Assembly: GCA_002788855.1 (NCBI GenBank)
Contig: PFSB01000006.1
Span: forward strand, 99,292 to 163,291
DNA from: Candidatus Roizmanbacteria bacterium CG_4_9_14_0_2_um_filter_38_17
GTDB taxonomy: Bacteria; Patescibacteriota; Microgenomatia; GCA-00278855
Reading direction: 5' to 3'
Length of the DNA: 64,000 nt
The position numbers and the translations under genes are program-made. Under the pieces are notes generated by a model. That model had not been told where the DNA came from. It saw only the letters and a list, made by a program, of their open reading frames with translations, and did no database searches. This document shows, piece after piece, positions 11,541 through 58,859 of this stretch. Every line of letters starts with the position of its first letter. Within the stretch, counting starts at the first letter, position 1.

Positions 11541-11546
11541 GAAGAC

Positions 11547-11822
11547 ATGACAATAACAATACCCATAACACAAGCAAGGGAAGAATTGACGAGCCTTGTG
11601 GATAATGTCAAGAGGAAGCTAGATGAGTATGTAATTACAGTTAATGGAACCCCTGCGGCGGTTGTGATATCTTCGGCAGAGTACGAATCTTGGAAAGAAA
11701 CAAATGAAATTCTATCTGATTTGGAACTTACAAAAGCTATAAAGAAGGGTGAGAAAGATGTAGATAAAGGACGGATTTATTCTCTTGAACAGCTGAGAAA
11801 AGAATTGAAACTTGTTTTTTAA
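11547..11822 (+). CDS. Phd/YefM-family antitoxin
   Basis: 91 aa, N-terminal ITQAREELTSLVDNV...VNGTPAAVVISSAEYESWKET typical Phd/YefM fold; immediately upstream of RelE-like gene. Confidence 0.75.
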   Translation: MTITIPITQAREELTSLVDNVKRKLDEYVITVNGTPAAVVISSAEYESWKETNEILSDLELTKAIKKGEKDVDKGRIYSLEQLRKELKLVF

Positions 11823-11827
11823 GTAAG

Positions 11828-12079
11828 ATGTATAGAATACTTATTACTTCTCAAGCTAGAAAAGAACTCAAAAAGATTAAAAAGAAATACCAGCAAGCAA
11901 TAGTAGAAATACTTGTTGAGCTTCAAGAAAATCCCAGATCAGGCAAGCCCCTAACGCGAGAGTTGACTGGAAAATTTTCTTATAAGGTAGGAGTATATAG
12001 AATAATATATACAATTAATGACCTAGATAAGACAATCCATATTCTAACAGCGGGTCATCGTTCTAGTGTATATAAATAG
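11828..12079 (+). CDS. RelE/ParE-family toxin (type II)
   Basis: 83 aa, basic N-terminus, C-terminal ...YRIIYTINDLDKTIHILTAGHRS consistent with RelE/ParE. Confidence 0.75.
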   Translation: MYRILITSQARKELKKIKKKYQQAIVEILVELQENPRSGKPLTRELTGKFSYKVGVYRIIYTINDLDKTIHILTAGHRSSVYK

Positions 12080-12118
12080 CTTGTGTGAATTTTCTGCAAG
12101 GACAAAACTTGCAGAAAA

Positions 12119-13447
12119 TTAGTATTCACCAAAGATGATTTTGTCTGCAATTGATTTTCCATCTCTGACTGCTTGGTTGGTGCCTCTGTCTTCCGGATAA
12201 ACTTGAGCCATGTTTACTAAATAGAGATTATCTATACCGGTTTTAACAGGTGGGATATAGTTATGATAATTTGTGTCTACGATGGGTTGAGCAAACTTAT
12301 CTCTAAATATCCAATGTGCATCTACAAAGGACTTGTTAAATTTGGGATTAATTTTCTTTAGTTCTTTAACAATTAGCTCAAATAAGTCTGTTTTATTCAT
12401 GGTCATTAACTCGTCCGTCTGGGCTGGGTAGGCACCAGCATAAAGCAAGTGAGCTCCACTATATTTATTTGGTGATACAAAATTAGTATGTTCAACTACA
12501 GCCAGAATATGTGAATTTGGATCGTTAACGTTTAGCCAATAGATATCTTTCATAAATTGTTTTTTTAGTTGCAAGATGGCCACCATTGCCCCACGATACT
12601 TAACCTTAGCCAGTTTTTCTGTATATTCTGCTGGTAAAGATGGGCAAAGCTTGGCAAAGACTGGATTTGGGGTTGTGACAATAATTTTGTCATATTGCAA
12701 GGTTTGACCTTTTTGAACTTGCAGGGTCAAACCCTGTTTGCTTGAAGGTTTAATTTCAACAATGTCTGAATTGGTATAGAGATTTACCTGCTTATTCCTA
12801 AGCTTCTCTAATAGCTTATCAATTAATAATTTAAATCCTCCATCAAGATAGACCAGCTCCTCATTAGCGCCGTTTCTGGATTTGCTTCGAAGATATAGCC
12901 TTGACCAGAGCCAAGCCATGGATATGCTGTCTGCGTGTTCTCCAAACTTTCCCTTTAAAAGTGGTTCCCAGATTATCTTATATGCCCTTCGGCCCGCGTA
13001 TTTGAGAATCCAGTTGCCAGCTGACAACTGTGCTAGCTTTTTCCAATTTTTATCAGTAACAAATTTTTGTAGATATATTGCCACAAACCCCAGTCTAATT
13101 CGGTCAATAAGGGGTAGAGGAGAGAAATGAAGTAAGTCTTTTGGTGTGGAGAAAGAGTAGATTTTACTGTTGTAGTGGATACCTACTGAACTTGGTAAAT
13201 AAAGTAGCTTATGATCAATATTTAGTTCGTGAATAAGGCCAATAATATCTTTGTCAGATTTAAATAGGTGATGATAGTAGCCTTCAAAACCTACTCCATT
13301 TACTGTAAGCAATCCCAGTAGTCCACCAAAATTAGCATTTTTTTCGTATAGATCTATCTGGTATTCGGGGTTTTGTGAGAGATAATAGGTTGTGCTTAAT
13401 CCTGACATGCCTCCTCCGATTATTGCAATTTTTGTTTTCATGCTCAA
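12119..13447 (-). CDS. FAD-dependent oxidoreductase (amine oxidase / desaturase / UDP-galactopyranose-mutase-like fold)
   Basis: N-terminal dinucleotide motif KIAIIGGGMSGLSTTYYL, 442 aa. Confidence 0.6.
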   Translation of the reverse strand: MSMKTKIAIIGGGMSGLSTTYYLSQNPEYQIDLYEKNANFGGLLGLLTVNGVGFEGYYHHLFKSDKDIIGLIHELNIDHKLLYLPSSVGIHYNSKIYSFSTPKDLLHFSPLPLIDRIRLGFVAIYLQKFVTDKNWKKLAQLSAGNWILKYAGRRAYKIIWEPLLKGKFGEHADSISMAWLWSRLYLRSKSRNGANEELVYLDGGFKLLIDKLLEKLRNKQVNLYTNSDIVEIKPSSKQGLTLQVQKGQTLQYDKIIVTTPNPVFAKLCPSLPAEYTEKLAKVKYRGAMVAILQLKKQFMKDIYWLNVNDPNSHILAVVEHTNFVSPNKYSGAHLLYAGAYPAQTDELMTMNKTDLFELIVKELKKINPKFNKSFVDAHWIFRDKFAQPIVDTNYHNYIPPVKTGIDNLYLVNMAQVYPEDRGTNQAVRDGKSIADKIIFGEY

Positions 13448-17244: not shown

Positions 17245-18347
17245 TGTTAATAGGTGTTGATGGTAATGAGGCTAATCAAGACACAAGGGTAGGAATTGGT
17301 AGGTATGCGATGGAACTGCTATGGCAGTTCTACAATTTTCAAATACCAAATATCAAACTCCAAATTTATTTAAAAGATAAACCGAGAGGCCATATGCCTA
17401 AAGAGAAAGATGGGTGGGAATATAAAATTGTTGGTCCTCGAGCGTTTTGGACACAAATAGGTCTACCAATTGATCTATTTTTAGACAAAAATAGACCAGA
17501 TATATTCTGGACACCAACACATTATGCTCCGCGTTTTTGCCCCGTCCCAAGTATTGTATCGATCATGGACACTTCGTATCTACACTATCCAGAAATGTTT
17601 AAGAAAAGAGATCTATATCAATTGACGAGTTGGAGCAAATATTCAATAAATAACGCAGCTATGGTTTTGACTATCAGTAAAGCAGCAAGAGCTGATATAA
17701 TTAAGTTCTATAATGTTGATCCGACAAAAGTAGTGGTTACTTATCCGGGGATTGTAATGAATAAAAATATACTAACGAATAAGATTTTAGCTAAATATGG
17801 AATTAAGCCCAACTTTATTCTGTATGTTGGCACGCTTCAGCCACGCAAGAATTTAGTTCGCTTAATAGAGGCATTTGGTCTGTTGGAAAATAAGACGTTG
17901 CAGTTAGTTATAGTTGGAAAAAAAGGTTGGTTGTTTGACGAGATATTTACAAAAGTAAATGAGCTAGGACTGGAAGATAGAGTTATTTTTACAGGATTTG
18001 TGCCGGACGAAGAACTTTCAAGCTTCTATCAAGAAGCCAAGCTAATTACTTTAGTAAGTCTGTATGAGGGATTTGGGTTACCACCTCTTGAGGCGATGAG
18101 TTATGGTACGCCAGCTGTAGTTTCAAATGTCTCTAGTTTGCCGGAGATTGTTGGTGAGGCGGGTATTTTAGTTAATCCAGAGGATTCATCAGATATAGCC
18201 TCCGGAATAACGAAGGCTCTTACTATGTCTGATTCGGCTTATAATAAGCAAAGGGAGCTGGCAAAAGCACAAGCAGCTAAGTTTAATTGGAGTGACACAG
18301 CTAGAGAGACGCTTCAAGTATTGCAAAGTGTAGTTGGGAATATATAA
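17241..18347 (+). CDS. GT4 family glycosyltransferase
   Basis: C-terminal EGFGLPPLEAMSYGTPAVVS (glycos_transf_1 EX7E region). Confidence 0.75.
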   Translation: MMLIGVDGNEANQDTRVGIGRYAMELLWQFYNFQIPNIKLQIYLKDKPRGHMPKEKDGWEYKIVGPRAFWTQIGLPIDLFLDKNRPDIFWTPTHYAPRFCPVPSIVSIMDTSYLHYPEMFKKRDLYQLTSWSKYSINNAAMVLTISKAARADIIKFYNVDPTKVVVTYPGIVMNKNILTNKILAKYGIKPNFILYVGTLQPRKNLVRLIEAFGLLENKTLQLVIVGKKGWLFDEIFTKVNELGLEDRVIFTGFVPDEELSSFYQEAKLITLVSLYEGFGLPPLEAMSYGTPAVVSNVSSLPEIVGEAGILVNPEDSSDIASGITKALTMSDSAYNKQRELAKAQAAKFNWSDTARETLQVLQSVVGNI

Positions 18348-18364
18348 AGATCGGATCTTTATTA
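18341..18364. repeat. REP-A palindrome (TATATAAAGATC-G-GATCTTTATTA)
   Basis: Near-perfect 11/12-bp-arm hairpin; same element flanks RAYT at 34619 and 35345. Confidence 0.7.
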
Positions 18365-32783: not shown

Positions 32784-34163
32784 ATGGATGATTTAATGAA
32801 AAAAATTGTTTCCCTGAGTAAGCGACGCGGATTTGTGTATCCTGGTAGTCAGATCTATGGTGGATTAGCTAATACCTGGGATTACGGACCGTTAGGAACT
32901 ATGTTAATGAAGAATATTCGTGATAGTTGGTGGACGCTGTTTATTACTCAAAGAAGAGATATGTTTCCGCTTGATTCGGGAATTCTTATGAGTCCTAGGG
33001 TGTGGGAGGCTTCGGGTCACACTTCAACTTTTAATGACATGCTTATAGATTGCCGTAACTGTAAATTGCGTACAAGAGCAGACCATCTAATAGAGGAACA
33101 CTTTGAAGAAAAAAAAGAAGAAATAAAGGTAGAAGGTTTATCTAGTCAGGACTTGGCAGATATTATTCAGAACCATGGAATTGTGTGCCCTAAATGTAAA
33201 AAAATAGATTGGACTGCTCCACGTGCTTTTAATCTATTATTTGAAACTAACATCGGTATTGTCCCAGAGAATCAGTCAAAAGCTTATTTACGAGGAGAGA
33301 CAGCGCAAGGAATATTTGTTAATTTTAAGCAGGTCGTAGAAAGTATGCGCCCTAAATTACCTTTTGGAATAGGTCAGATTGGTAAATCATTTAGAAATGA
33401 GATTACCAAAGGTAATTTCGTGTTTAGAACTTTGGAGTTTGAGCAGGCTGAGATCGAGTATTTTTTTGATCCAGAACAAGATGACTGGAGAAAATTGTTT
33501 AATAGCTGGAAAGATAAAATGCAGACATTTGTAGTTGATGAATTAGGGATAGATAAGGCGAAGCTACGTTGGAGAAAGCATACAGATGATGAACGCTCGC
33601 ACTATTCCAGACATACAGAAGATCTGGATTACAAGTTTCCGTTTGGATATAAGGAGTTATGGGGAATTGCCTATCGCACAGATTTTGATCTAAAGCAGCA
33701 CATGGAGGAAAGTGGACAGGATCTTAGATATCTTGACCCCCAGACTAATAAAAAATTAGTACCTCATGTAATTGAACCAGCTGTGGGAGTAAATAGATTG
33801 TTTTTGATGGTTCTGGTTGATGCGTATACAGAGGAAGAAAAACGGACAGTACTAAAACTTAAGCCAAGCCTAGCTCCTTATGTTGCAGCTATTTTCCCTC
33901 TCTTGGGTAATAAGCCAGAATTAAAAGAAAAAGCAAAGGCTATATATGATAAGTTGCAAAAATATTTTAGCGTCACTATAGATGAGAGGGGTAATATAGG
34001 TAAAAGATATTTTGCTCAAGACGAGATTGGAACACCACTGTGCATAACTGTAGATTTTGAAACCCTTACGGACGGCGCTGTGACAATCAGAGAACGAGAT
34101 ACAATGGCGCAGAGTAGAGTTGCAATTGATAAAATAGTAGATTATATTAATGATATACTATGA
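32784..34163 (+). CDS. glyQS: Glycine--tRNA ligase (dimeric GlyQS type)
   Basis: SLSKRRGFVYPGSQIYGGLANTWDYGPLG N-terminal signature, class II motifs, 459 aa. Confidence 0.9.
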   Translation: MDDLMKKIVSLSKRRGFVYPGSQIYGGLANTWDYGPLGTMLMKNIRDSWWTLFITQRRDMFPLDSGILMSPRVWEASGHTSTFNDMLIDCRNCKLRTRADHLIEEHFEEKKEEIKVEGLSSQDLADIIQNHGIVCPKCKKIDWTAPRAFNLLFETNIGIVPENQSKAYLRGETAQGIFVNFKQVVESMRPKLPFGIGQIGKSFRNEITKGNFVFRTLEFEQAEIEYFFDPEQDDWRKLFNSWKDKMQTFVVDELGIDKAKLRWRKHTDDERSHYSRHTEDLDYKFPFGYKELWGIAYRTDFDLKQHMEESGQDLRYLDPQTNKKLVPHVIEPAVGVNRLFLMVLVDAYTEEEKRTVLKLKPSLAPYVAAIFPLLGNKPELKEKAKAIYDKLQKYFSVTIDERGNIGKRYFAQDEIGTPLCITVDFETLTDGAVTIRERDTMAQSRVAIDKIVDYINDIL

Positions 34164-34612
34164 AAAATTTAGTTATTGGAGTTGTGGTTTTGATTTTCTT
34201 GGTAATAGGCGGTTGGTTTCTATTTGGTAAAAATACCAATTCAGATATAGAATTGCTGTCAGAGCCAACAGTGACTCCAGCACTTGCCCCTATAGGAGAT
34301 GAGGTTAGTGTTAATTTTGAACCAAATAAAGCCCGTACGAAGGCTACCCTTGTAATCAGTGGCTTAGATAAGGCGGGAGTTGAAAGTTTAGAATATGAAG
34401 TACTCTACGAAACATCTGGCTTAGTTAAAGGAATAAATTCTGGTAGTTCACCTGTTGAGGTGGATGTTAATGGTGAAGTTGAGCGAGAGCTGGACTTTGG
34501 AACGTGCTCTAGTGGAGTATGTAGATATGATAAAGAAATAGGCACTATTACGCTAATAATCCGCTTTAATACCAGCTCTGGCACCAAACTCTTCAAACAA
34601 GAATACAACTAA
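34160..34612 (+). CDS. Hypothetical membrane-anchored secreted protein
   Basis: N-terminal TM then beta-rich 130 aa. Confidence 0.4.
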   Translation: MKNLVIGVVVLIFLVIGGWFLFGKNTNSDIELLSEPTVTPALAPIGDEVSVNFEPNKARTKATLVISGLDKAGVESLEYEVLYETSGLVKGINSGSSPVEVDVNGEVERELDFGTCSSGVCRYDKEIGTITLIIRFNTSSGTKLFKQEYN

Positions 34613-34618
34613 CCCCAA

Positions 34619-34643
34619 CATATAAAGATCCGATCTTTATATA
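34619..34643. repeat. REP-A palindrome (CATATAAAGATC-C-GATCTTTATATG), inverted orientation
   Basis: Perfect 12-bp arms around single C. Confidence 0.75.
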
Positions 34644-35344
34644 TGATATTATTAGTTTGTATGAGACTAGTCAATTTTGTGAATGGTCAGGTTTATCACA
34701 TATATAACAGAGGTGTTCGCAAGGATTTACTTTTTTATAGAGATTCTGACTATGTGAGGTGGGAAAATCTTTTATCCTGGTGTTCTAACTATAGCTATCC
34801 ATTTAGTAGTTATGTTCAAGGGCTAAAATCGCTTAGTAAGGAGAAGGCTAGTCTTGATGCCTATCAAGAACGTATAGAAAAAGAATATCGTTACAGTCGG
34901 CCTCTTGTTAATATTCTTTGCTATATTGAGATGCCTAATCATTTTCACTTAGTTCTCGAGCAAAACGTTGAATCAGGCATTTCTTTGTTTATGCAAAAGC
35001 TGTCCATTGCGTATGCAATGTATCTTAATAGTAAATATGAGCTATCTGGGTCAGCTTTTCAAGGTAAATATAAGTTTGTACACGTAGAAACAGATGCTCA
35101 GCTAGTTCAGCTGTTAAAGTATATGTTACTTAATCCCGTAGTTGCACTCATAGTTTCAATTTTAAATCTAAAAAAATATAAATGGTCAGCACTTAAAGAG
35201 TATTTGGGAAATACTGACAAGATGATAGTCGACACAACCAAGTTGCCTAGTGTGTTTATAAACCCACAGGAGTTATTAAATTTTCTTAAAGAGGAGTCAG
35301 GCTCTGGATTTACAGCGGAACTTGGTTCACTAGTTATAGACTAA
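34643..35344 (+). mobile_element. REP-associated tyrosine transposase (RAYT; IS200-like Y1/HuH transposase) copy 1
   Basis: HuH motif MPNHFHLVL, C-terminal KYMLLNPV (variant of RAYT Y-x-H-x-N-P motif, His replaced by Leu); flanked by inverted REP-A hairpins; probable true start MRLVNF at 34661. Confidence 0.7.
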
Positions 35345-35369
35345 TATATAAAGATCGGATCTTTATATA
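35345..35369. repeat. REP-A palindrome (TATATAAAGATC-G-GATCTTTATATA)
   Basis: Perfect 12-bp arms immediately after RAYT stop. Confidence 0.75.
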
Positions 35370-35427
35370 TTGGTTGTGGTGAAGATGTCTTGACACGTAG
35401 CTTAAATGTGGTGTAGAGTGGATATAA

Positions 35428-35883
35428 GTGGTGAAAAGTGGTGAAATGTTACTAGGTAGATATACGAGCCGTGTTACAGACAAGGGCAGAGTTGCCTTGC
35501 CAGCTAAGCTCAGAGCTGAACTAGGAGAAAAAATAGTAGTGACTCAGGGATATGAAAAATCACTAATCTTAGTTGGCGAGAGTAGTTGGCGAGAGCTGAT
35601 CAAAGGAACAAGTCAAAAGCCTTTTACTATTGGCGCAGCACGCGACACCACGAGGTTTTTATTAGGTAGCGCTAGTTCGGCGATTTTAGATAAGCAAGGT
35701 AGGTTTGTGTTACCTGACTATCTTAAGCAGCACGGTGAGATAACAAAAGAGGTAATATTTCTTGGATTAGGCACGTATATTGAGCTTTGGGATAAAAAGC
35801 GCTGGGAAGAATATCAGGAATATTTAAATGTGAATATTGAAGATATATCAGAGAGATTAAGTAAATTAAACATTGAAAAATAG
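35428..35883 (+). CDS. mraZ: Transcriptional regulator MraZ
   Basis: Two DxxxR repeats (TDKGRVALPAKLR and LDKQGRFVLPDYL), 151 aa, heads dcw cluster. Confidence 0.9.
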   Translation: MVKSGEMLLGRYTSRVTDKGRVALPAKLRAELGEKIVVTQGYEKSLILVGESSWRELIKGTSQKPFTIGAARDTTRFLLGSASSAILDKQGRFVLPDYLKQHGEITKEVIFLGLGTYIELWDKKRWEEYQEYLNVNIEDISERLSKLNIEK

Positions 35884-36757
35884 TACACACTATGCATCTC
35901 ATATACCCGTTCTTCCACGGGAAGCTGTGGATAGCTTAAAGGTGAAGAAGGGTGAGAAATATATTGATGCAACGCTTGGTTTTGGTGGGCATACAAAAGA
36001 GATCCTTAAAAAAGGTGGAATACTTCTTGGAATAGATTGCGACGGTGAAAATCTGGCATCAGTAGGTAAGGATTTATCAGCATATGACAGCAATAGTTGG
36101 AAGTTGGTGCAAGGAAATTTTGAGAATATACAAAATATTGCAGAAGTAGAAGGGTTTAGCTCGGTCTCAGGTGTTCTTTTTGATCTAGGGATATCTAATT
36201 GGCAGTTGGATGAATCTAATCGGGGTTTAAGTATTCGTTTTGATCTTGATTCAGAAGAAAAACTAGATATGCGCTTGGATCAAACTCAAGAGATTACCGC
36301 TGAATATATAGTAAATAAATATTCTGAAAAAGAACTATATGAAGTGTTTAGTAAGTATGGTGAGCTAAGAGAAGCAAAAAGTATAGCAAGAATTATTGTA
36401 AAAAAACGGCCAATAGTTACAGGTAGTAAGCTTGTAACAATCATAAATTCAGTTGCCAGCTCAAAGAGCTTATTGGCAAGATCATTTCAAGCACTGCGTA
36501 TAGAGGTAAATCATGAACTTAGAGCACTAAAATCAGGGTTAGCTGGAGCAGAAGCCATCCTTAAGCCAGGTGGAGTATTAGCTGTTATTAGTTTTCATTC
36601 ACTAGAAGATCGACTGGTTAAACAGGCGTTTAATAATTGGTCAAATACAAAAAAGATGGAGGTAGTAACAAAACAGCCAATTACAGCTGGCACTCAAGAA
36701 GTAAAAGCAAATTCTCGAGCAAAAAGTGCAAAACTTAGAGTTGCTATAAAAAAATGA
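35873..36757 (+). CDS. rsmH: 16S rRNA (cytosine1402-N4)-methyltransferase RsmH (MraW)
   Basis: HIPVLPREAVDSL and DATLGFGGHT motifs. Confidence 0.9.
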   Translation: MKNSTHYASHIPVLPREAVDSLKVKKGEKYIDATLGFGGHTKEILKKGGILLGIDCDGENLASVGKDLSAYDSNSWKLVQGNFENIQNIAEVEGFSSVSGVLFDLGISNWQLDESNRGLSIRFDLDSEEKLDMRLDQTQEITAEYIVNKYSEKELYEVFSKYGELREAKSIARIIVKKRPIVTGSKLVTIINSVASSKSLLARSFQALRIEVNHELRALKSGLAGAEAILKPGGVLAVISFHSLEDRLVKQAFNNWSNTKKMEVVTKQPITAGTQEVKANSRAKSAKLRVAIKK

Positions 36758-37026
36758 AAAAAACAATAATTCTAACCCTGATTCCGTTGTTAATATTATT
36801 TGTTGTACAGATTACTGTATCTGCAAAAGTCTCTGGCATAGGTAAAGATGTGGCGCTTATTGAAGCCAATGCGATCAAACTTGACCGCGAAAATGATTTA
36901 TTACAGCATAAAGTAGCTAGTGAAACTGCCCTTCTTATAGTGCAGCAAAAAGCTGAAAAACTGGGAATAACTACCAAGGTTCCCGTTGAGTTTCTTGACG
37001 ATTCGGTGTATGTTGTACAGAGATGA
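36754..37026 (+). CDS. ftsL: Cell-division protein FtsL-like (single TM plus coiled coil)
   Basis: 90 aa, one TM, position between rsmH and ftsI. Confidence 0.55.
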   Translation: MKKTIILTLIPLLILFVVQITVSAKVSGIGKDVALIEANAIKLDRENDLLQHKVASETALLIVQQKAEKLGITTKVPVEFLDDSVYVVQR

Positions 37027-38693
37027 ACCGGTTACGCTTTATAGGGCTGTTGTTTATGTTAGTCTTCTTGCTAATCTGGGTTAGGCTTTTTTATTGGCAG
37101 GTAATTCAGCGGGATCGGCTCGCAACTCAAGCACAAGGACAATATGCTTCGGAGTATAGTGTATTTCCAACGCGCGGCAAAATTCTATCAGTTGATAATG
37201 CTGTTATTGTTACTAATCAACCTGCTTACATCCTATTTGCTGAGACTAAAAAATTACCTTCAGATAAGAACTATATATTTGAGATAGCCAAGGCGTTGGA
37301 AATTGAAGAAGCTTCGATTGCCGCAACTCTAGATACACAAAAAAACTGGGTGTCTGTAGTTCGTAAAGTAACCACGGAACAAAAACAACTTATTGAGGAG
37401 TTAGAGATTTCTGGTTTGGGTTTTGAACAGGAGAATGTGCGTTTTTATCCTGAAGGCTCGGCAAGTGCTGCTTTATTGGGTTTTGTAGGTGGAGATCTAA
37501 GCGGAGAGCCCAAGGGCTATTTTGGGCTTGAGGGTTATTATGATGAAATTTTGACGGGCAAGCCAGGTTTTGTACGTGCTGAAAAAGATGCACATGGGGT
37601 ACCAATACCCATAGGCTCACAAAAGCGCATAGAAGCTATTGAGGGCGCTGATTTAGTGTTAAATATCGACGTTGGAATTCAAAATGCTGTAGAGCAACAC
37701 TTAAAACGAGGAATAGAACGATATGAAGCAACGTCTGGCGCGGTTATTGTGATGCGCCCTACAACTGGTGCAATAGTCGCAATGGCGTCTTTTCCCTCTT
37801 ATGATCAGCGAGACTATGCAAATTATGATCCGAAGCTGTACAAAAATTCAATAGTGGCTGATACATTCGAACCTGGTTCAACTTTTAAGGTTATTACTAT
37901 GGCTGCTGCTATCAATGAAAAGGTAATTAAACCAACAACTACATATATGGAAACCGGACCTGTAGTTGTGCAGGGATACAAAATTAGAACATGGAATGAG
38001 CAATATGGTGGAAAGACAAATATGACCGAAGTGCTTGAAAGATCTTCTAATGTGGGAATGGTGTTTATTAGCCAGAAACTTGGCATAGAGCTTTTTTACA
38101 AGTATCTTCGTGAATTTGGCTTTGGCGCATATACTGGTATAGATCTTCAGGAGGAAGTAAGTTCTCCTTTGCGTAAAAGAGATTCCTGGAAAGAGATAGA
38201 TCTGGCAACCTCATCTTTTGGCCAGGGAATAGCTGTAACTCCAATTCAGTTAATACGCGGGGTTGCGGCAATTGCTAATCAGGGCGAGCTGGTGGTGCCT
38301 AAAATTGCAAATGCCATGCGCTTTGAGGATAATAGGGTGATTGACCTGATGACGGAACAAGGCAAGAGAGTGATATCTCCAGCTACCGCAAGTATAGTGA
38401 CGGAAATGATGGTTTCATCAGTAGATAATGGTGATGCGCGCTGGGCTAAGCCAAAGGGTTTTCGTATTGCCGGCAAAACTGGTACTGCCCAGATTCCAGT
38501 TGAGGGTCGTTATGATCCAGATCGTACTATAGCTTCTTTTATTGGTTTTGCTCCAGCTAATGATCCCGAGTTTATTATGCTTGTAATACTTAAAGAACCT
38601 CAGACTTCTCCTTGGGGGTCTGAAACAGCAGCGCCGCTTTTCTTTGATATCTCCCGCGACCTCTTTGCGTATCTGAATGTATCTCCAAGTTAA
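37023..38693 (+). CDS. ftsI: Peptidoglycan D,D-transpeptidase FtsI / class B PBP
   Basis: STFK (SxxK), SSN and KTGT active-site motifs, N-terminal TM. Confidence 0.9.
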   Translation: MNRLRFIGLLFMLVFLLIWVRLFYWQVIQRDRLATQAQGQYASEYSVFPTRGKILSVDNAVIVTNQPAYILFAETKKLPSDKNYIFEIAKALEIEEASIAATLDTQKNWVSVVRKVTTEQKQLIEELEISGLGFEQENVRFYPEGSASAALLGFVGGDLSGEPKGYFGLEGYYDEILTGKPGFVRAEKDAHGVPIPIGSQKRIEAIEGADLVLNIDVGIQNAVEQHLKRGIERYEATSGAVIVMRPTTGAIVAMASFPSYDQRDYANYDPKLYKNSIVADTFEPGSTFKVITMAAAINEKVIKPTTTYMETGPVVVQGYKIRTWNEQYGGKTNMTEVLERSSNVGMVFISQKLGIELFYKYLREFGFGAYTGIDLQEEVSSPLRKRDSWKEIDLATSSFGQGIAVTPIQLIRGVAAIANQGELVVPKIANAMRFEDNRVIDLMTEQGKRVISPATASIVTEMMVSSVDNGDARWAKPKGFRIAGKTGTAQIPVEGRYDPDRTIASFIGFAPANDPEFIMLVILKEPQTSPWGSETAAPLFFDISRDLFAYLNVSPS

Positions 38694-38722
38694 AGTTAAT
38701 TGTTTTAGCTCTTATTAGCGGT

Positions 38723-38747
38723 CTATTAAAAACTGGGTTTTTAATAG
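38723..38747. repeat. REP-B palindrome (CTATTAAAAAC-TGG-GTTTTTAATAG)
   Basis: Perfect 11-bp stem, 3-nt loop. Confidence 0.75.
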
Positions 38748-38771
38748 AATATTTGGTATTCTTGTATTGTT

Positions 38772-39482
38772 ATGAGAAAAGATGCGGTGTTTGTAGTCGG
38801 TGAGTTTTATCATGTATATAATAGAGGAACTCGTAAAAGCGAAATATTTTTGAATGAAAGTGATTATAGACGATGAGATGAGTGTTTGTATTGGAGTAAT
38901 AATTTTGGCTATCCCTATAGTCTTCTAAGACAGCAAATTAATCAGGCGAAAAAGAGTGGTAGAAATATTAAAGAAGTAGTTGAACAAATTGAAATGCAGT
39001 ACCGATTATTTGAGTCTTTGGTTAATGTAATTTCTTACGCACATATGCCAAATCACTTTCACCTAGTCTTGAGGCAAAATGTAGATAATGGAATATCAAA
39101 ATTTATGCATAAAATGTCGGCTTCTTATGCAAAGTACTTTAACAAGAAGTACAATCTAACCGGATCACTGTATGAAGGAAATTTTAGAGCGATTCAGATA
39201 ATATCTGAACCTCAACTATTAGAAGTTAGTAGATATGTTCATATTAATCCAACTGTAGCAGGAATTGTTGATATAAAGGGTTTGCTTACATATCCCTGGA
39301 CATCGTTGCGTTTATATGTAGGAGAAGTGAATAATAAGCTCGTTGATATCAGTTATTTACTCGGCTTAAGTAATAATAACGCAGAAGAGCTGGTAAGGTT
39401 TACTCTTTCCAGGATTAGCGATGATAATGAAGGACTATTGGAAGGGATAATGATTGATGGTAACAAATTAGCCCGTAAATAA
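38772..39482 (+). pseudogene. RAYT copy 2, disrupted by in-frame TGA (TGG to TGA at the Trp position conserved in copy 1)
   Basis: ATG 38772 gives MRKDAVFVVGEFYHVYNRGTRKSEIFLNESDYRR-stop-DECLYW...; downstream part intact with MPNHFHLVL and RYVHINPTVAGIV (Y-x-H-x-N-P) motifs; copy 1 has DSDYVRWENLLSW at the equivalent position. Confidence 0.65.
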
Positions 39483-39485
39483 GCT

Positions 39486-39510
39486 CTATTAAAAACCCAG
39501 TTTTTAATAG
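39486..39510. repeat. REP-B palindrome, inverted orientation (CTATTAAAAAC-CCA-GTTTTTAATAG)
   Basis: Exact reverse complement of copy at 38723. Confidence 0.75.
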
Positions 39511-39642
39511 AATTGCAGTGATTATGAAGAGGGTGTGAAGGATAAATCCGGTGATGTACCAGGAAGAGCTACTAGTACTAGCTCACATATAGGAAACTAG
39601 CAGTTTTTAGGTGGAAGATAAGACTTAAGATATAATACATCC

Positions 39643-40920
39643 ATGGCTTTAGTTACAAAGCTTCGTGGTCTGATTCCAAATAATTTAGTTAATACTTTTT
39701 GGCATTATCCTATTGCTTTGTTTGCGGCTTTGAGATATGGGTTTCCAGCTAAAAAACTTACTTTAATTGGGGTAACAGGTACAGATGGAAAGACTACTAC
39801 AACTTACATTATTAACCATTTGTTAAAAAAAGCTGGATATAAAACAGCTATGATCACGTCTGTATTGGCGGAGATAGCTGGCAAAACTAGTAATACAGGT
39901 TTTCATGTTACCAGTCCCCATCCTTGGCAAGTGCAGAAATATTTAGCTGAAGCAGTTAAATCTGGGGTAACTCATGCGATTCTAGAAGTTACTTCCCACG
40001 CATTGGATCAACACAGATTTGCCGGTTGTAGTTTTAGGTATGGAATTGTAACGAATATTAAACCTGACCACCTGGACTATCATAAAACTTATGATAACTA
40101 CTTTCATTCAAAGTCTAAGCTACTCTTAGGAGCTCAAAAAGCAGTTCTTAACAAAGACGATCAAAGCTTTAACAGGCTAAATACACTCTTAACAGGAAAA
40201 GATATTGTTACGTATAGCATTAAGGAGCAAGCAGACTTTACAGGTAAAAAAATAATACAAACAAGTATACCTGTCACTCTACCAGGAGATTACAATCTAT
40301 CCAATATTCTGGCCGCCACAGCCGTTGTAAATAATATTGGCCTCTCTATTGATGAAGTTAGTAAATATTTACCATCTTTTAAAGCAGTACCAGGCAGATT
40401 TAATGAAGTAGATATTAAAAAAGACTTTCGGGTAGTAATAGATTTTGCCCATACGCCCTATGGTTTACAGGCTTTACTTACTGCGCTGCGGAATCAAACT
40501 CAGGCAAGAATTATAGCTGTATTTGGTTGTGCGGCAGAACGTGGAGCAGATAGGCGAGAGATGGGCAGGGTAGGTGGTAAGTTGGCAGATATAACAATTA
40601 TTACAGCCGAGGATCCTCGTTTTGAAGGCGTGGAAAAGATAAGCGCTGTGATTGCAGGTTGGGCAGATAAAGCTGGAGCAGAAGAATTAAGCAGCAAACA
40701 GTTAGGAGATAGTAGCAAAAAAGATAAGCATGTATATACTAAAATAGCAGATCGGCAAGGGGCAATAAATGCTGCAATAGACATTGCAAAGCCTGGAGAT
40801 ATTATTGTTTTATGTGGAAAAGGACACGAGCAAAGTATGAATTTTAGAGGAGTTGAATATCCTTGGGATGAAAATAAGGCTGTTCAAAAAGCCCTAACTA
40901 AAAGATATGGATCTAAGTAA
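39643..40920 (+). CDS. murE: MurE-like Mur ligase (UDP-MurNAc-L-Ala-D-Glu:diamino acid ligase) lacking canonical N-terminal domain
   Basis: P-loop GVTGTDGKTTTTYII at residue 44, C-terminal AVFGCAAERGADRR...TAEDPRFE resembling MurE FGCGGDRD...DNPRxE region; in-frame stop 6 codons upstream of ATG. Confidence 0.7.
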   Translation: MALVTKLRGLIPNNLVNTFWHYPIALFAALRYGFPAKKLTLIGVTGTDGKTTTTYIINHLLKKAGYKTAMITSVLAEIAGKTSNTGFHVTSPHPWQVQKYLAEAVKSGVTHAILEVTSHALDQHRFAGCSFRYGIVTNIKPDHLDYHKTYDNYFHSKSKLLLGAQKAVLNKDDQSFNRLNTLLTGKDIVTYSIKEQADFTGKKIIQTSIPVTLPGDYNLSNILAATAVVNNIGLSIDEVSKYLPSFKAVPGRFNEVDIKKDFRVVIDFAHTPYGLQALLTALRNQTQARIIAVFGCAAERGADRREMGRVGGKLADITIITAEDPRFEGVEKISAVIAGWADKAGAEELSSKQLGDSSKKDKHVYTKIADRQGAINAAIDIAKPGDIIVLCGKGHEQSMNFRGVEYPWDENKAVQKALTKRYGSK

Positions 40921-42343
40921 AATTAAGCATATACATTTTGTTGGTATAAAAGGTGTAGGGATGACATCTCTAGCTGTATTAGCCCATGAGATGAAAAAAA
41001 AGGTGACTGGTTCTGATGTTTTGGAAGAATTTGTGACAGACAAAGTGCTTAAAGATCTGAAGATTGAAGTATTTGGGGAATTTAATGGAGAGAATTTTAA
41101 GAAGTTACTAACAAGATACAGCCCCCCAGAATTATTAGTAGTTACAACGGGTGCACACCAAGGATTTAATAATCTAGAGGTACAACATGCTAAAGAGCTA
41201 GGCTTTAAAGTAGTCTCCCACGCTCAAGCTTTGGGTATATTATCCATGCATAAGAATGTGATTGCTGTTGCTGGAACGCATGGTAAGTCAACAACAACTG
41301 CAATGATAGCGCATGTTTTAACTGAAGCTGGGACAGATCCATCATACTTAGTGGGAGTTGGAAGCATACCTTCATTACCAAATCCAGGTCATCACGGCAA
41401 GGGTAATTTGTTTGTAGTTGAAGCTGACGAATATGTAACTGATCCTCAAACAGATCCTACCCCACGGTTTCTGTGGCTTAAGCCTAAGATATTAGTAATA
41501 ACATCCGTCGAATATGATCACCCAGATGTTTATTCAGATGTTTACAAACTAGTTCAAGCATTTAGAGAGCTAGCGGAAAAAGTACCCATAGATGGTACCA
41601 TCATTGCCTGTATAGATAACCTAGGTGTGGAGAAAGCTCTAGAGGGCTCTAAGGCTAAGATTATTTGGTATGGATTCTCTCCTCGTGCAGATTATAGAAT
41701 CAAAAGTTATTATCCAACCTTATTATCTGGCGGGCAAGTGGTTTTAGAGTTTTGTGTTGAACACCAAAAACGTGAGTTATTTTGCACACAGCTGGCGGTA
41801 TCTGGTAGACATAATAGCTTAAATGCATTGGCATGCATTATTGCTTGTGTTGAGGTAGGAGTATCGTGGACTAAAGCACCCGAATACCTGAGAAGTTTTA
41901 CGGGTACGGGGCGCAGATTTGAGTTAAAAGGCCAACAAGGAGAGACCGTACTATACGATGATTACGCACATCATCCAACTGAGATTAAGGCTGTGCTGGC
42001 TATGGCTAAGGAGCTCTACGTGGGTTATCATATTATAGCTATATTTCAGCCCCATACATATTCACGCACTAAAGCTCTGTTTAAGGACTTTGCAAAATCT
42101 TTTACAGATGCGAATGAAACTTATTTATTAGATATTTTTTCCTCGGCCCGAGAAAAGAAAGATCCATCTATTTCATCACAAGAATTAGCCAAGGAAGCTA
42201 GTAAGCATGGGGCGCAGGTTAAATATGTACGAAGTGTTCTGGAGATGGTTAACAGGATAAAGTCGAAATTAGGGAGTAAACAGGTTATAATTACGATGGG
42301 AGCTGGAGATGTATACAAGATACACGATAAGCTAAAAGTCTAA
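40907..42343 (+). CDS. murC: UDP-N-acetylmuramate--L-alanine ligase MurC
   Basis: HFVGIKGVGMTSLAVLAHEMKKKVTGSD N-terminal signature, P-loop VAGTHGKSTTTAMI. Confidence 0.85.
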   Translation: MDLSKIKHIHFVGIKGVGMTSLAVLAHEMKKKVTGSDVLEEFVTDKVLKDLKIEVFGEFNGENFKKLLTRYSPPELLVVTTGAHQGFNNLEVQHAKELGFKVVSHAQALGILSMHKNVIAVAGTHGKSTTTAMIAHVLTEAGTDPSYLVGVGSIPSLPNPGHHGKGNLFVVEADEYVTDPQTDPTPRFLWLKPKILVITSVEYDHPDVYSDVYKLVQAFRELAEKVPIDGTIIACIDNLGVEKALEGSKAKIIWYGFSPRADYRIKSYYPTLLSGGQVVLEFCVEHQKRELFCTQLAVSGRHNSLNALACIIACVEVGVSWTKAPEYLRSFTGTGRRFELKGQQGETVLYDDYAHHPTEIKAVLAMAKELYVGYHIIAIFQPHTYSRTKALFKDFAKSFTDANETYLLDIFSSAREKKDPSISSQELAKEASKHGAQVKYVRSVLEMVNRIKSKLGSKQVIITMGAGDVYKIHDKLKV

Positions 42344-42344
42344 T

Positions 42345-43604
42345 ATGGCAAAATTTATAATAAATGGCAGAAATAGACTAGAAGGAAAAATTAAGGTTGC
42401 GGCTAATAAGAATGCGGTTTTGCCAGTAATGGCGGCAACGCTTCTTTGTGAAGGAACAAGCATTATTCATAACGTACCTGAAATAAAAGATGTTGAGGTA
42501 ATGGTGAATATTTTACGCAAGCTGGGAGCAAAAGTAACCTTAAGCGAGAGAACATTAACAGTAGACAGCTCAAATATAACCAATCTAGAAATACCACGTG
42601 ATCTAGCTCAACGCCTGAGAGCATCAGTATTATTGTTGGGACCATTACTTGCAAGAGCTGGAGAAGTTAAGCTTCCTCATCCTGGTGGTGATGTAATAGG
42701 TAGGCGTGGTATTTTCACACATATTTCTGCATTGACGAAGCTAGGGGTTCAAATTACTCAAGATGACCTCATGTACTATGGCAAGGTTATTCAGAAAAAT
42801 GCAGTGAAAGTATTTTTAGATGAACCCTCAGTGACAGGCACAGAAAATGTCATGATGTACGCGGCTTTAACAGATGGTGAAACAGTGATAGAGAATGCTG
42901 CAGCTGAACCTCATATTGTTGATCTATCTAGATTTTTAGCATCAGCTGGTGTAACTATCGAGGGAGCAGGAACTAGTAGAATTAGAATAATAGGAAAAAA
43001 GAGCTTAAAGGGCGGAGAGTATACAATTTCTCCTGACCCGATTGAAGCGGGCACATTTGCAATTGCTTCTGCAGTAACCAAAGGAGACCTGGAGATTGGA
43101 CCAATTGTACAAGATGACATGCAGATGATAAAGATAGTGCTGGAGAGATTTGGCGTTAATCTAAAGTTTGATAAAGATAAACTTCGTGTAAATTCCAAAG
43201 AAATAACAGCACCTCTTAGACCTGTGCAAGCAATGGTTTGGCCTGGCTTTCCAACTGACCTTATGAGTCCTTTAATCGTGCTTGCCACACAGGCAGAAAG
43301 GCAGACCCTGTGTCATGATCCTCTTTATGAGTCACGCATGTTCTTTGTTGATAAGCTAATTAGAATGGGGGCTCACATTACAATCTGTGATCCGCATCGT
43401 GTCATTGTGTATGGCAAGTCAAACTTGTATGGAAGAGAGCTGGCAAGTCCAGATATACGAGCAGGAATGGCCTTAGTTTTGGCGGCTTTAATAGCGGAGG
43501 GTAAGAGTGTTATTGATCAAGCAGAGATTGTTGAAAGGGGATACGAGAATATTGACAAAAGATTGCGTATAATAGGAGCAGATATTAAAAGATCTAATGA
43601 TTAA
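42345..43604 (+). CDS. murA: UDP-N-acetylglucosamine 1-carboxyvinyltransferase MurA
   Basis: FIINGRNRLEGKIKVAANKNAVLPVMAATLL, 419 aa EPSP-synthase fold. Confidence 0.9.
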   Translation: MAKFIINGRNRLEGKIKVAANKNAVLPVMAATLLCEGTSIIHNVPEIKDVEVMVNILRKLGAKVTLSERTLTVDSSNITNLEIPRDLAQRLRASVLLLGPLLARAGEVKLPHPGGDVIGRRGIFTHISALTKLGVQITQDDLMYYGKVIQKNAVKVFLDEPSVTGTENVMMYAALTDGETVIENAAAEPHIVDLSRFLASAGVTIEGAGTSRIRIIGKKSLKGGEYTISPDPIEAGTFAIASAVTKGDLEIGPIVQDDMQMIKIVLERFGVNLKFDKDKLRVNSKEITAPLRPVQAMVWPGFPTDLMSPLIVLATQAERQTLCHDPLYESRMFFVDKLIRMGAHITICDPHRVIVYGKSNLYGRELASPDIRAGMALVLAALIAEGKSVIDQAEIVERGYENIDKRLRIIGADIKRSND

Positions 43605-44841
43605 ACAAGCAGTTATATTGGCAGCAGGCGAGTCATCAAGGTTTCAGCCGTTGTCTGCATATAGGCATAAAGCAGAAATCCCATTGCTTGGTAAAAGTTT
43701 GCTCCAGCGCACGGTAGATAACTTACAGAGCATTGGTGTAGAAGAGGTTATTATAGTTCATTCGCCAGATCGAAGACCTCAGTTATTTGCTCATGAGTGT
43801 GAACTAAGATTTGTAGTTCTAGATAAACCTACAGGAATGGGAGATGCCCTGCTGGCAGCTTTAGATTTTTTGGATGATAAATATTTTGTGCTTCATCCCT
43901 ACCACTTTGCGGGAGTTAATTACATGAAAAAGATGGTTAAGGTTACAGCTGAAAATAATGGCTGTTTATTAGTAACTGATCCCGTAATAGGAAAAAGCGG
44001 TGGACTTGCCACGGTTGAAAAGGATGACATTGTCCAGGTTGAGGAGATGGAGTATAAGGGGGGAGATAATAAGAAATATGTTCTTGGAATATATTTACTA
44101 ACCAAAACATACACAGATATTTTGCAACAGACTAAAAAAGATCACTATAGTTTTGAACTTGCCCTTGATCAATATGCAAGAGCTAACAAATTATCCTGGT
44201 TTCAGGTTAGAGACTACTCAGTATCGCTAAAATACCCCTGGGACTTATTCAAGATCAAGGATACGCTTCTTCGCTCTAGTAAAGCAAGTATAGCGAAAAC
44301 AGCGAAAATTGACCCAACAGCCGTGATAGATGGGGTAGTTATTATCGATGAAAATGCGAAAATAGGAGCATATGCCGTTATTAGAGGTCCCGCATATATT
44401 GGTAGAAATGTACGAGTAGGAGATCATGCTTTGGTTCGTGATTTGACTACATTGGAAGAGGGCTCGATGGTGGGTGGTTCAGCAGAAGTAAAAAATAGTA
44501 TTGTTTTGGAAGAGTCTCATGTGCAGGGATATCTTGCAGACTCTATAGTGGGGCAAGAGGTGAGAATAGCTCATGGATTTGTTTCAGCTAATCGCCGCAT
44601 TGATAGGGAAACCATCTCTGTAGAGGTTAAAGGTAAAAAAATAGATACAAGGTTTTTTGCCCTGGGTTGTATAGTAGGTGATAATGTTTATACGGGTATA
44701 AATGTGGCAACTATGCCAGGGGTTAAAGTTGGTGAGAATTCAATAGTTGGCCCTCGTACCACTGTGTTTGCGAATGTCCCTCCAAATGTTCGGTATTATC
44801 AAAAAGCCGAATCCCACACAGAAAAGATTATAAAGAAGTAA
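43597..44841 (+). CDS. Bifunctional sugar-1-phosphate nucleotidyltransferase / hexapeptide acetyltransferase (GlmU-like)
   Basis: N-terminal AVILAAGESSRFQPL NTP-transferase motif and C-terminal LbH repeats; follows murA. Confidence 0.5.
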   Translation: MIKQAVILAAGESSRFQPLSAYRHKAEIPLLGKSLLQRTVDNLQSIGVEEVIIVHSPDRRPQLFAHECELRFVVLDKPTGMGDALLAALDFLDDKYFVLHPYHFAGVNYMKKMVKVTAENNGCLLVTDPVIGKSGGLATVEKDDIVQVEEMEYKGGDNKKYVLGIYLLTKTYTDILQQTKKDHYSFELALDQYARANKLSWFQVRDYSVSLKYPWDLFKIKDTLLRSSKASIAKTAKIDPTAVIDGVVIIDENAKIGAYAVIRGPAYIGRNVRVGDHALVRDLTTLEEGSMVGGSAEVKNSIVLEESHVQGYLADSIVGQEVRIAHGFVSANRRIDRETISVEVKGKKIDTRFFALGCIVGDNVYTGINVATMPGVKVGENSIVGPRTTVFANVPPNVRYYQKAESHTEKIIKK

Positions 44842-44847
44842 TCTGCT

Positions 44848-45555
44848 ATGAATAGTTATCATAGGCAACTATTGGTTAATATCCAGAAGAATTCAAGAAG
44901 AGAAGATTTGTCATTACACAATAGCCAGAAGTACTGTGGGACAAGTGACAAATTCTACAATCTTAAAACAGAAATCAAGCGTCAGGCTGCAAAAGAATTT
45001 TTTAGAAAGTATCTTGATTTATCTTTCGATGAGTATATTGAGCTTTTGGATTCTTTGAACACTGGAAAATCCTATGAAGAAAAAACTATTGCCTCAATGA
45101 TTTTATGTTTGTATAAAAACAACAAAGAACACATAGGTCCAGAACATTTAGATAAGTGGCTTGAAAATCTTGAAGGTTGGGCAGAAATTGATTCATTATG
45201 CCAGTCTTCTTTTGGTGCTGATGAAATATTACTAAAATGGAACAGTTGGGAAAAAGCCTTAATTACTTTCTCCAGATCAGATTTTATTAGCAAAAGAAGA
45301 GCGAGTCTTGTTTTGCTTGTAAAACCTGTAAGAGACGCTAAGAATGATAAGTTGTTTAGTCTTGCGCTGGAAAATATAGATAAATTAAAGAAAGAGAAAG
45401 ATATATTAATTACAAAAGCAATTTCGTGGTTGTTACGGGATATGATAAAAAACTATAGAAATGAAGTAAGGCATTACTTGAAGGAAAATAGAGAAACTCT
45501 CCCAAAAATTGCTATAAGGGAAGTAACAAGGAAACTAGAAACAGGAAAGAAGTAA
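44848..45555 (+). CDS. DNA alkylation repair protein (AlkC/AlkD-like HEAT-repeat glycosylase family)
   Basis: W/D-rich helical repeats (WLENLEGWAEIDSLC, KAISWLLRDM) typical of DNA_alkylation family. Confidence 0.55.
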   Translation: MNSYHRQLLVNIQKNSRREDLSLHNSQKYCGTSDKFYNLKTEIKRQAAKEFFRKYLDLSFDEYIELLDSLNTGKSYEEKTIASMILCLYKNNKEHIGPEHLDKWLENLEGWAEIDSLCQSSFGADEILLKWNSWEKALITFSRSDFISKRRASLVLLVKPVRDAKNDKLFSLALENIDKLKKEKDILITKAISWLLRDMIKNYRNEVRHYLKENRETLPKIAIREVTRKLETGKK

Positions 45556-45572
45556 GCAGTTAGATTATAAAT

Positions 45573-45797
45573 ATGGAAGCTAGAGAAGCAAGTATTATAA
45601 CAGGTGTAATTGCAGAGAAATATGGTCTGGATAACATAGAAGTGAGTGGTTGGCTACATAATGCATTAGATCCTGGACTAGGTCCAGAAAGCAATCAAAA
45701 AGCGAGAGGATCGCTAAATCATGCTCTTGACGAATCGGATGTAACCTATTTACTTGGTATTTGGGCTGATTGTATAGCCGACTCCAACTCTGCTTAA
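45573..45797 (+). CDS. Hypothetical small protein
   Basis: 74-aa ORF, no recognisable motif. Confidence 0.3.
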   Translation: MEAREASIITGVIAEKYGLDNIEVSGWLHNALDPGLGPESNQKARGSLNHALDESDVTYLLGIWADCIADSNSA

Positions 45798-45824
45798 ATA
45801 TCTGGATTGGATCTAGTTCTGGCT

Positions 45825-45890
45825 CTATTAAAAACTGGGTTTTTAATAGGTTGTTAAATCAAGCTATTAAGGGGGTCAACTATTTAAATT
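45825..45890. repeat. REP-B palindrome plus about 40-bp extension; left copy of direct repeat bounding 1.5-kb cassette
   Basis: CTATTAAAAACTGGGTTTTTAATAG then TTGTTAAATCAAGCTATTAAGGGGGTC...TTTAAATT; matches 47377..47443. Confidence 0.7.
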
Positions 45891-46013
45891 ACAGGAAGTG
45901 ATTTCCATTATTGGGACACAGAGCTCGTAATACTTTTTAAACTTCAAAAAAAGTTCCAAAATTTTTGTCATTCAAAAGTTAACCTCATTTTAAGTTCGAA
46001 TCCCACTCGGCCG

Positions 46014-47376: not shown

Positions 47377-47443
47377 TCTATTAAAAACTGGGTTTTAAAT
47401 AGATTGTTAAATCAAGCTTTTAAGGAGGTCTACCCTTTAAATT
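47377..47443. repeat. REP-B variant plus extension; right copy of direct repeat bounding cassette
   Basis: CTATTAAAAACTGGGTTTTAAATAG then ATTGTTAAATCAAGCTTTTAAGGAGGTC...TTTAAATT. Confidence 0.7.
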
Positions 47444-47579
47444 TCAGACCCTTTAAATCCAGATAATGGGGTCAGCCACCTATTTAGAAAAAATACAAGG
47501 ACAAATCTTGTAGAAAATATATATGCAAATTTTCTACTCAATTGGGAAACGGCACCTTTTTTCATTTAACGCTCAACTT

Positions 47580-58834: not shown

Positions 58835-58859
58835 CTATTAAAAACTGGGTTTTTAATAG
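58835..58859. repeat. REP-B palindrome (fifth copy)
   Basis: CTATTAAAAACTGGGTTTTTAATAG. Confidence 0.75.

Follow-up and report, generated by a model that had tools for sequence, protein, structure and literature searches.

Is a transposase-like gene that is interrupted by a single stop codon a dead gene, and if so, how recently was it lost? The question is raised by a 64,000-nt stretch of DNA, hereafter the window, from Candidatus Roizmanbacteria bacterium CG_4_9_14_0_2_um_filter_38_17 (contig PFSB01000006.1, positions 99,292 to 163,291 of the forward strand), in which a gene resembling the REP-associated tyrosine transposases (RAYTs; REP, repetitive extragenic palindrome) lies between ftsI and murE and is bracketed by two copies of a palindrome that we call REP-B. 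We consider it very likely that this gene, RAYT2, and its cognate REP-B hairpins form a RAYT-like unit comparable to the E. coli REPtron, that the unit has long occupied this site, and that the window carries a very young null allele of it.

A single stop codon interrupts RAYT2

RAYT2 is a 236-codon Y1/HUH gene (38772-39482, + strand) whose sole interruption is a TGA at 38874-38876. The frame opens at ATG 38772, reads through 34 sense codons (MRKDAVFVVGEFYHVYNRGTRKSEIFLNESDYRR) to the TGA and then continues for 201 codons to TAA 39480-39482, so that an open reading frame (ORF) finder splits it into a 34-aa ORF and a 198-aa ORF starting at TTG 38886. Upstream lies ftsI (37023-38693; PBP_dimer and Transpeptidase domains) and downstream murE (39643-40920; Mur ligase domains), within an mraZ-rsmH-ftsL-ftsI-murE-murC-murA cluster, which bears out the location given in the initial annotation of this DNA, made by inspection of the letters. 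The HuH and Y-V-H-I-N-P motifs that it had reported are present in the 236-aa product obtained by restoring Trp at codon 35, as PNHFHLV (H95/H97) and RYVHINP (Y155), and the Trp that it had placed at the aligned position of a first gene copy (RAYT1, 34643-35344) is encoded there by TGG; it had also seen the TGA correctly but put it at about 38868, off by 6-8 nt. A scan of the RAYT2 locus for promoters and terminators gave nothing above shuffled expectation. The 198-aa remnant (38886-39482) is publicly recorded as an ordinary protein (PIP61897.1, PJC32128.1, NCN58590.1, UniRef100_A0A2H0BW42), and these records should be flagged as a pseudogene fragment.

The stop codon is real, terminates translation and is derived

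Sequencing or assembly error can be excluded as the source of the TGA because the region is identical in contigs from separate assemblies. Window positions 34000-46000 are 100% identical in contigs L001-L010 and L114-L119, drawn from JGI, ENA, Logan and NCBI assemblies of differing runs and pipelines; at least 10 separate assemblies are base-identical across the RAYT2 region, and 32 collection blocks list the 198-aa product. The contigs with TGG described below differ at further linked sites and thus represent a separate haplotype rather than a correction. Recoding is likewise excluded because TGA is the stop codon of 18 of the 52 likely genes of the window, among them rsmH and ftsL directly upstream, with many of these stops at ATGA overlaps, and the standard code applies; the roughly 18,000 codons of the window hold no other in-frame TGA. 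These counts uphold the earlier judgment that TGA is a true stop here and recoding unlikely. No tRNA informative on the genetic code lies within the window, and an Rfam scan of it for known RNA elements or recoding signals found nothing. Some candidate-phyla-radiation lineages do recode TGA, and one close contig carries TGG, yet with this evidence against it we give an artefact, or a sense TGA under translation table 4 or 25, next to no chance. A stop recurring across the family, possibly programmed, was also ruled out, as the ORF is intact (188-257 aa) at every one of about 76 homologous loci.

The stop arose by a G-to-A change at 38876. Codon 35 is TGG in an 87%-identical full-length orthologue (P0002) from a related lineage, A, in a third lineage, B, and in two contigs, L113 and L021, that barely differ from the window. 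This comparison with related bins confirms the single TGG-to-TGA change by which the initial annotation had explained the inactivation. Across 1343 nt, L113 differs from the window at 3 positions (38876 A/G, 39114 A/G, 39349 T/C), all inside RAYT2, and at all three it matches the state of lineage A, whereas L021 reads G, G and T. The window haplotype therefore carries three derived changes in RAYT2 (W35*, V88M and T192I), none of them synonymous, and none in the covered flanks. Four haplotypes occur at 38876/39114/39349 (GGC, GGT, AAC and AAT), which indicates recombination among co-occurring strains or repeated mutation. Relative to the lineage A orthologue, RAYT2 shows a synonymous divergence (dS) of 0.64 and a dN/dS of 0.105, values that resemble those of its housekeeping neighbours, and contains no further stop or frameshift. 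This ratio and the lack of any other lesion show that RAYT2 was under purifying selection and functional until very recently. The null allele is very young and still polymorphic, and it coexists with an intact allele, three bases apart, in one natural, groundwater-type population.

At its first 22 nt (L021 1-22, window 38785-38806) contig L021 shows four mismatches, one of which creates an in-frame TAG. These are most likely a contig-end artefact, although the TAG may be a second, independent null allele.

Predicted fold and effect of the stop on the product

We predicted the structure of the orthologue P0002, standing in for the Trp-restored window protein, with AlphaFold2 (mean pLDDT 93.2). 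In the model, beta1 spans residues 12-19, W35 lies within helix 29-44 and Y155 within helix 146-162. The best Foldseek match in the PDB is 4ER8, the E. coli TnpA-REP with a REP hairpin (E 1.6e-6), followed by the TnpA proteins of ISDra2 and IS608, all at probability 1.00. A profile search of PDB sequences gave no sequence-level link to a solved structure, so that fold comparison alone made the connection. Alignments of 27 and 46 homologues share 14 invariant residues, including N94, H95, H97, Y155 and N159, and 6 of the 14 (Y13, H14, N17, R18, G19 and D31) lie upstream of the stop.

The initial annotation had pointed out that reinitiation at TTG 38886 would give an N-terminally truncated protein. 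Such a product, starting at residue 39, would be without beta1, most of helix 29-44 and 6 of the 14 invariant residues. Because it would be missing these six residues and the strand that runs from the edge to the core, we infer from the model that it would be inactive.

RAYT2 belongs to a hairpin-flanked Y1 family

The Trp-restored product scores 34.9 bits against Pfam Y1_Tnp (PF01797) and RAYT1 25.1 bits, with a gathering cut-off of 23 bits. All of 46 aligned homologues conserve H95-F-H97 and Y155, and both paralogues carry the class-2 tyrosine motif Y-x3-NP (YVHINP in RAYT2, YMLLNP in RAYT1; family consensus YV[HN]LNP). The family is further marked by PNHFH, LFQGxFK and a YxxSS tail at a length of 205-257 aa (~236 aa), and by motif comparison, rather than by the authors' hidden Markov models, it appears to match TnpAY1 subclass 2.1, equivalent to Bertels Group 1 (TIRYT). 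Subclass 2.1 is described with NH[YF]H, FQ, Y[IV]HLNP, an SS tail and a median length of 238 aa, and is the only subclass in that table to match the motif set of RAYT2 (Quentin et al. 2018, PMC6006769 Table 1); among the RAYT groups, signs of horizontal transfer are most numerous in Group 1 (Bertels et al. 2017).

REP-B is a 25-nt palindrome (CTATTAAAAAC-NNN-GTTTTTAATAG) which, folded as single-stranded DNA, gives a 12-bp stem and a 3-nt loop. The copies on either side of RAYT2, at 38723-38747 (loop TGG) and 39486-39510 (loop CCA), are 100% complementary over 27 nt, and three further copies, at 45825, 47378 and 58835, are all intergenic, with 0 matches expected from shuffled sequence. RAYT1, which lies upstream of mraZ, has a hairpin of its own, REP-A (ATATAAAGAT-CSG-ATCTTTATAT), with a solo copy at 18340-18362. 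The initial annotation had called RAYT2 a second copy of RAYT1; it is instead a paralogue, with 40% identity and a cognate hairpin that differs from REP-A. Each gene is thus flanked on both sides by its cognate palindrome (REP-B at 38723/39486, REP-A at 34620/35346), an arrangement kept in lineages A and B. Dispersed solo copies in the window number three for REP-B and one for REP-A, each of them between genes and where 0 are expected, a count limited to 64 kb. No GTAG or GTGG, the GT[AG]G foot, stands 5' of any REP-B (the preceding bases are GCGGT, AAGCT, TGGCT, TGTTT and ACAAC) or of REP-A; 'atypical' structures without the canonical foot have been described for subclasses 2.6 and 3 (Quentin et al. 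2018, PMC6006769).

Hairpin flanking extends well beyond this locus. Among 56 homologous loci with complete flanks, mostly from Patescibacteria, 33 have at least 16 exact nt common to both flanks, as against 0 of 213 shifted control intervals, and of the shared sequences that were inspected by eye most are palindromes. Given these counts, hairpin flanking is a family-wide property in Patescibacteria.

Since REP-B is a perfect palindrome save for its 3-nt loop, its orientation rests on three bases. The left and right loops are TGG and CCA in the window and in L113, and TGG or TAG and TGG in lineages A and B. The flanking pair that the initial annotation described as inverted is therefore there, but its inversion depends on three loop bases and the pair is direct in two sister lineages. 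Judged by these loops, the flip of the right REP-B took place in the window's lineage and preceded the nonsense mutation, because the intact-allele contig L113 shares the TGG/CCA arrangement.

More generally, the loop flips between TGG and CCA among orthologous copies and relative to conserved flanks (39486-39510; L011 8715-8739; L102-L112), the variants TAG, TGA and TCA also occur, and in solo copies loop orientation is uncoupled from flank orientation; the loop seems to be unconstrained in orientation or prone to inversion. Two solo copies belong to a 71-nt repeat, 89% identical (45824-45894 and 47377-47447), that begins with REP-B and runs on into GTTGTTAAATCAAGCT...TTTAAAT, and several other solo copies have GTTGTTAAAT and AGCCAGAAC flanks in common, and the solo element may therefore exceed 25 nt. 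In assembly ERZ17912254 a contig break falls precisely at the right REP-B (end of L005, start of L010; window ~39463-39517), which shows that palindromes of this type fragment metagenome assemblies.

Comparison with known systems

The closest described counterpart is E. coli TnpA-REP (YafM; 4ER8) with its REPtron. Both proteins have the Y1 HUH fold with an HuH motif, a single catalytic-type Tyr and Y-x3-NP, and in both systems cognate hairpins bracket the gene and recur between genes (for REP-B, at three sites within the 64 kb), the gene is in low copy and each paralogue has one hairpin type. The two proteins are ~13% identical in the structural alignment, and RAYT2 differs in its 236-aa length with a helical C-terminal tail and in NHFH in place of DHLH, while REP-B differs from E. 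coli REP in being AT-rich and perfectly palindromic with a 3-nt loop and no GT[AG]G foot, in a patescibacterial host. Unlike subclass 2.1 as reported, RAYT2 and 33 of the 56 homologues are palindrome-flanked, and Pfam did not detect a C-terminal helix-turn-helix (DnaA_C-like) domain in the restored protein. With the TnpA proteins of the IS200/IS605 family (IS608, ISDra2), RAYT2 shares the fold, subterminal hairpins on both sides, and insertion beside a fixed tetranucleotide with no obvious long duplication; it differs from them in its class-2 Tyr motif, greater length, lack of tnpB, single copy at a fixed site and solo hairpins.

The insertion site is far older than the stop

Empty ftsI-murE sites are found in L127 (FtsI 78% identical), L120 (64%) and L123/124 (51%), where the gap between the two genes is 14-34 nt (26-34 nt in L120 and L123); in L127 the TAA of ftsI is followed by GATATAATACGTGT and then directly by the ATG of murE. 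Because these relatives have an empty junction, comparison identifies segment 38694-39625 as a genuine insertion into an otherwise tight ftsI-murE junction. RAYT2 occupies the same junction in three lineages, namely the window, A and B, whose FtsI proteins are 81-94% identical and whose housekeeping DNA is 72-91% identical (lineage A ~91% and lineage B ~74% to the window). As three lineages this diverged occupy the same junction, the site is far older than the stop codon. The initial annotation had taken the position inside the dcw operon as a sign of recent mobility, a reading not supported by the sharing of this site among lineages with 72-91% DNA identity.

A TATAAT-type box lies 6-8 nt before the murE start in the window, A and B as well as in L127, L120 and L123 (loci inspected: window 39601-39642, L127 1769-1783, L120 5671-5705, L123 5671-5697), and is probably the -10 element of murE's own, leaderless promoter. 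In the three occupied lineages the 40 nt upstream of this box are near-invariant, and the remaining spacer is unalignable.

Hairpin-bounded cassettes appear to be exchanged between lineages

The signature of recent arrival belongs to the RAYT1 cassette, not to RAYT2. RAYT1 cassette DNA is 99.3% identical between the window (34620-35370) and lineage A (L011 3238-3987), against 85-92% in adjacent genes; the high-identity tract begins and ends at the REP-A hairpins, and lineage B, L127 and relatives further away lack the cassette. It looks like a recent acquisition or exchange. A comparable discordance, between A and B, affects RAYT2 together with both its hairpins, which are 98.3% identical in A (L011 7952-8745) and B (L111/L125), where ftsI and murE are ~74% identical. 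The tract, corresponding to window 38723-39516, extends from about the left hairpin to 6-8 nt past the right hairpin, beyond which the sequences cannot be aligned. Three separate assemblies agree exactly on the lineage B cassette, and it carries private substitutions of its own; these points rule out a chimeric assembly as the cause of the near-identity. Together the RAYT1 and RAYT2 discordances suggest exchange at the level of the cassette.

Two observations from the same neighbourhood stand apart from these tracts. In lineage A, two REP-A copies enclose an additional minus-strand gene for a 184-aa alpha/beta-hydrolase (L011 3961-4599), and the matching part of the window (~35343-35369) has a single REP-A and no hydrolase gene; the difference suggests a deletion or insertion via recombination between hairpins. 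The glyS gene (32784-34163) is, unlike all its neighbours, only 65% identical in DNA to lineage A (459 vs 426 aa) and 77% to B, which points to allele replacement in lineage A.

A probable young null allele in a long-resident unit, and its alternatives

The reading that we prefer runs as follows. A gene for a class-2 Y1/HUH single-stranded DNA endonuclease/transposase, bracketed by its own REP-B, would have inserted between ftsI and murE in an ancestor of one small Candidatus Roizmanbacteria clade and then stayed. In the window strain, a G-to-A transition turned Trp35 TGG into TGA, which ends translation after 34 residues; a product restarted at TTG 38886 would lack strand beta1 of the central sheet as well as the invariant YHxxNRG...D, and the enzyme would be expected to be dead. 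The null allele now dominates the sampled population, with the intact allele still present at low abundance, and in the long term REP-B would presumably no longer be mobilised and would slowly decay.

Several points weigh against this reading. UGA is the leakiest stop codon, with tRNA-Trp as its near-cognate reader, and some wild-type protein may still arise by read-through. The TGG contigs are short and thinly covered (L113 at 2.8x), the 64 kb of the genome to which the count is limited show just 5 REP-B copies, and for the putative activity of RAYT2 on REP-B the model is a distant relative. The NCBIfam model for REP-associated tyrosine transposases (NF047646) scores RAYT2 at 37.2 and RAYT1 at 29.5 bits against a cut-off of 80. 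The name RAYT used in the initial annotation is thus borne out by fold and architecture, not by this score or by the hairpins, which lack the foot, and we file RAYT2 as RAYT-like in mechanism, a member of the Y1 superfamily but no canonical RAYT. Lastly, subclass 2.1 has been reported without REPs nearby (Quentin et al. 2018, PMC6006769).

The TGA allele might be attenuated rather than dead, with read-through by tRNA-Trp giving a little normal enzyme, so that the allele would be a down-regulated version of a potentially harmful nuclease. The stop does replace a Trp exactly, so that read-through would restore the ancestral protein, RAYT2 carries no second disabling lesion, and the TGA allele is at high frequency; we nevertheless think such attenuation unlikely, as bacterial UGA read-through is typically well below a few percent and the accompanying V88M and T192I, with no synonymous or flank change, fit relaxed constraint, although three sites make a small sample. 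Alternatively, RAYT2 could be an active insertion sequence (IS) of the IS200/IS605 type, the hairpins being its ends, the solo copies miniature elements and the dcw site the result of a recent transposition. Consistent with this are the subterminal hairpins that flank the gene, in direct orientation in lineages A and B, the TTAA that bounds the insert on both sides, the existence of an empty site, and the IS608 and ISDra2 TnpA proteins among the structural matches. The cassette identities also fit, RAYT2 being 98.3% identical between A and B within ~74% flanks in a tract that stops 6-8 nt past the right hairpin, and RAYT1 99.3% identical between the window and A and absent from B. Yet the Tyr motif has the class-2 form Y-x3-NP where an IS200/IS605 protein would have the class-1 form Y-x3-Q, and RAYT2 measures 236 aa as against ~150 aa; there is one copy per paralogue in the 64 kb, the two mutually 40% identical, with no adjacent tnpB; RAYT2 sits at the same chromosomal site in three lineages, and the solo hairpin sites are conserved between lineages; and plasmids and phages yielded no close relatives, only distant matches below 37% identity. 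We therefore regard an active IS as very unlikely and retain a RAYT-like unit with a young null allele.

Implications of the RAYT2 polymorphism

The RAYT2 null is an ordinary event of a known kind, in a new host group and caught unusually early, since the loss of RAYTs, and alleles with early stops, are already known from Neisseria, E. coli and Pseudomonas, where nulls by premature stop are followed by decay of the associated REPINs (bioRxiv 10.1101/2021.07.10.451892). Like the RAYTs of N. gonorrhoeae, E. coli and P. chlororaphis, RAYT2 is single-copy, was hit by a small mutation that creates a stop, and has functional and null alleles among close relatives. Unlike the cases of Bertels and Rainey, it carries a nonsense substitution and not homopolymer slippage, so that it is not readily reversible by slippage, and its null is still polymorphic within one environmental population. 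The polymorphism thus represents the earliest possible stage of RAYT loss and could serve to probe whether selection favours such loss or is indifferent to it.

Y1 genes with hairpins on both sides are common across candidate-phyla-radiation genomes, in a subclass reported to be REP-less, and our literature search found no article in which RAYT and the candidate phyla radiation are mentioned together. That the cassette trees are discordant with their flanks bears on the debate over strictly vertical, 'domesticated' RAYTs. The discordant identities of the cassettes, along with the family-wide link to hairpins, merit further study. Taken jointly, these elements allow a tentative reading, which we regard as rather doubtful as a whole, that subclass 2.1/Group 1, although rated REP-less, runs hairpin populations in Patescibacteria, that its cassettes are exchanged as discrete units between co-occurring species, and that the null reflects a conflict between host and repeat. 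If this were true, the RAYT2 nonsense allele would be a snapshot of a conflict resolved by switching the enzyme off.

Feature coordinates and other elements of the window

Table 1. Features of the RAYT2 locus and related elements (window coordinates)
Feature	Coordinates	Strand	Remarks
RAYT-like TnpA-Y1 gene (RAYT2)	38772..39482	+	236 codons, nonsense allele W35*; intact alleles P0072/L113, P0002
In-frame TGA	38874..38876	+	derived base A at 38876; ancestral G gives TGG (Trp35)
Residual 198-codon ORF from TTG (codon 39)	38886..39482	+	the gene according to public annotations
Second derived change, linked to stop	39114..39114	+	GTG to ATG, V88M
Third segregating site	39349..39349	+	ACC to ATC, T192I; on TGA and TGG backgrounds alike
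Whole inserted segment	38694..39625	+	left spacer, REP-B, RAYT-like gene, REP-B, right spacer; TTAA on both sides
Left REP-B	38723..38747	+	12-bp stem (one flanking T-A pair included), loop TGG; single-stranded DNA fold -8.2 kcal/mol, z = -7.6
Right REP-B	39486..39510	-	loop CCA, flipped vs left copy; loop TGG in lineages A and B
Solo REP-B	45825..45849	+	intergenic
Solo REP-B	47378..47402	+	1 mismatch, intergenic
Solo REP-B	58835..58859	+	intergenic; same site occupied in L109 (contig 87-92% identical)
TATAAT	39631..39636	+	6 nt upstream of murE ATG; in occupied and empty sites
Paralogous cassette	34620..35370	+	REP-A, RAYT1 (34643-35344, intact), REP-A; RAYT1 40% identical to RAYT2

Elsewhere in the window, two toxin-antitoxin-like pairs lie within 10197-12244, one nucleotidyltransferase/HEPN-like (10197-10807) and the other Phd/RelE-like (11547-12079). 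A 108-nt repeat, 88% identical between its two copies (11220-11327 and 12137-12244), duplicates the 3' end of the neighbouring gene.

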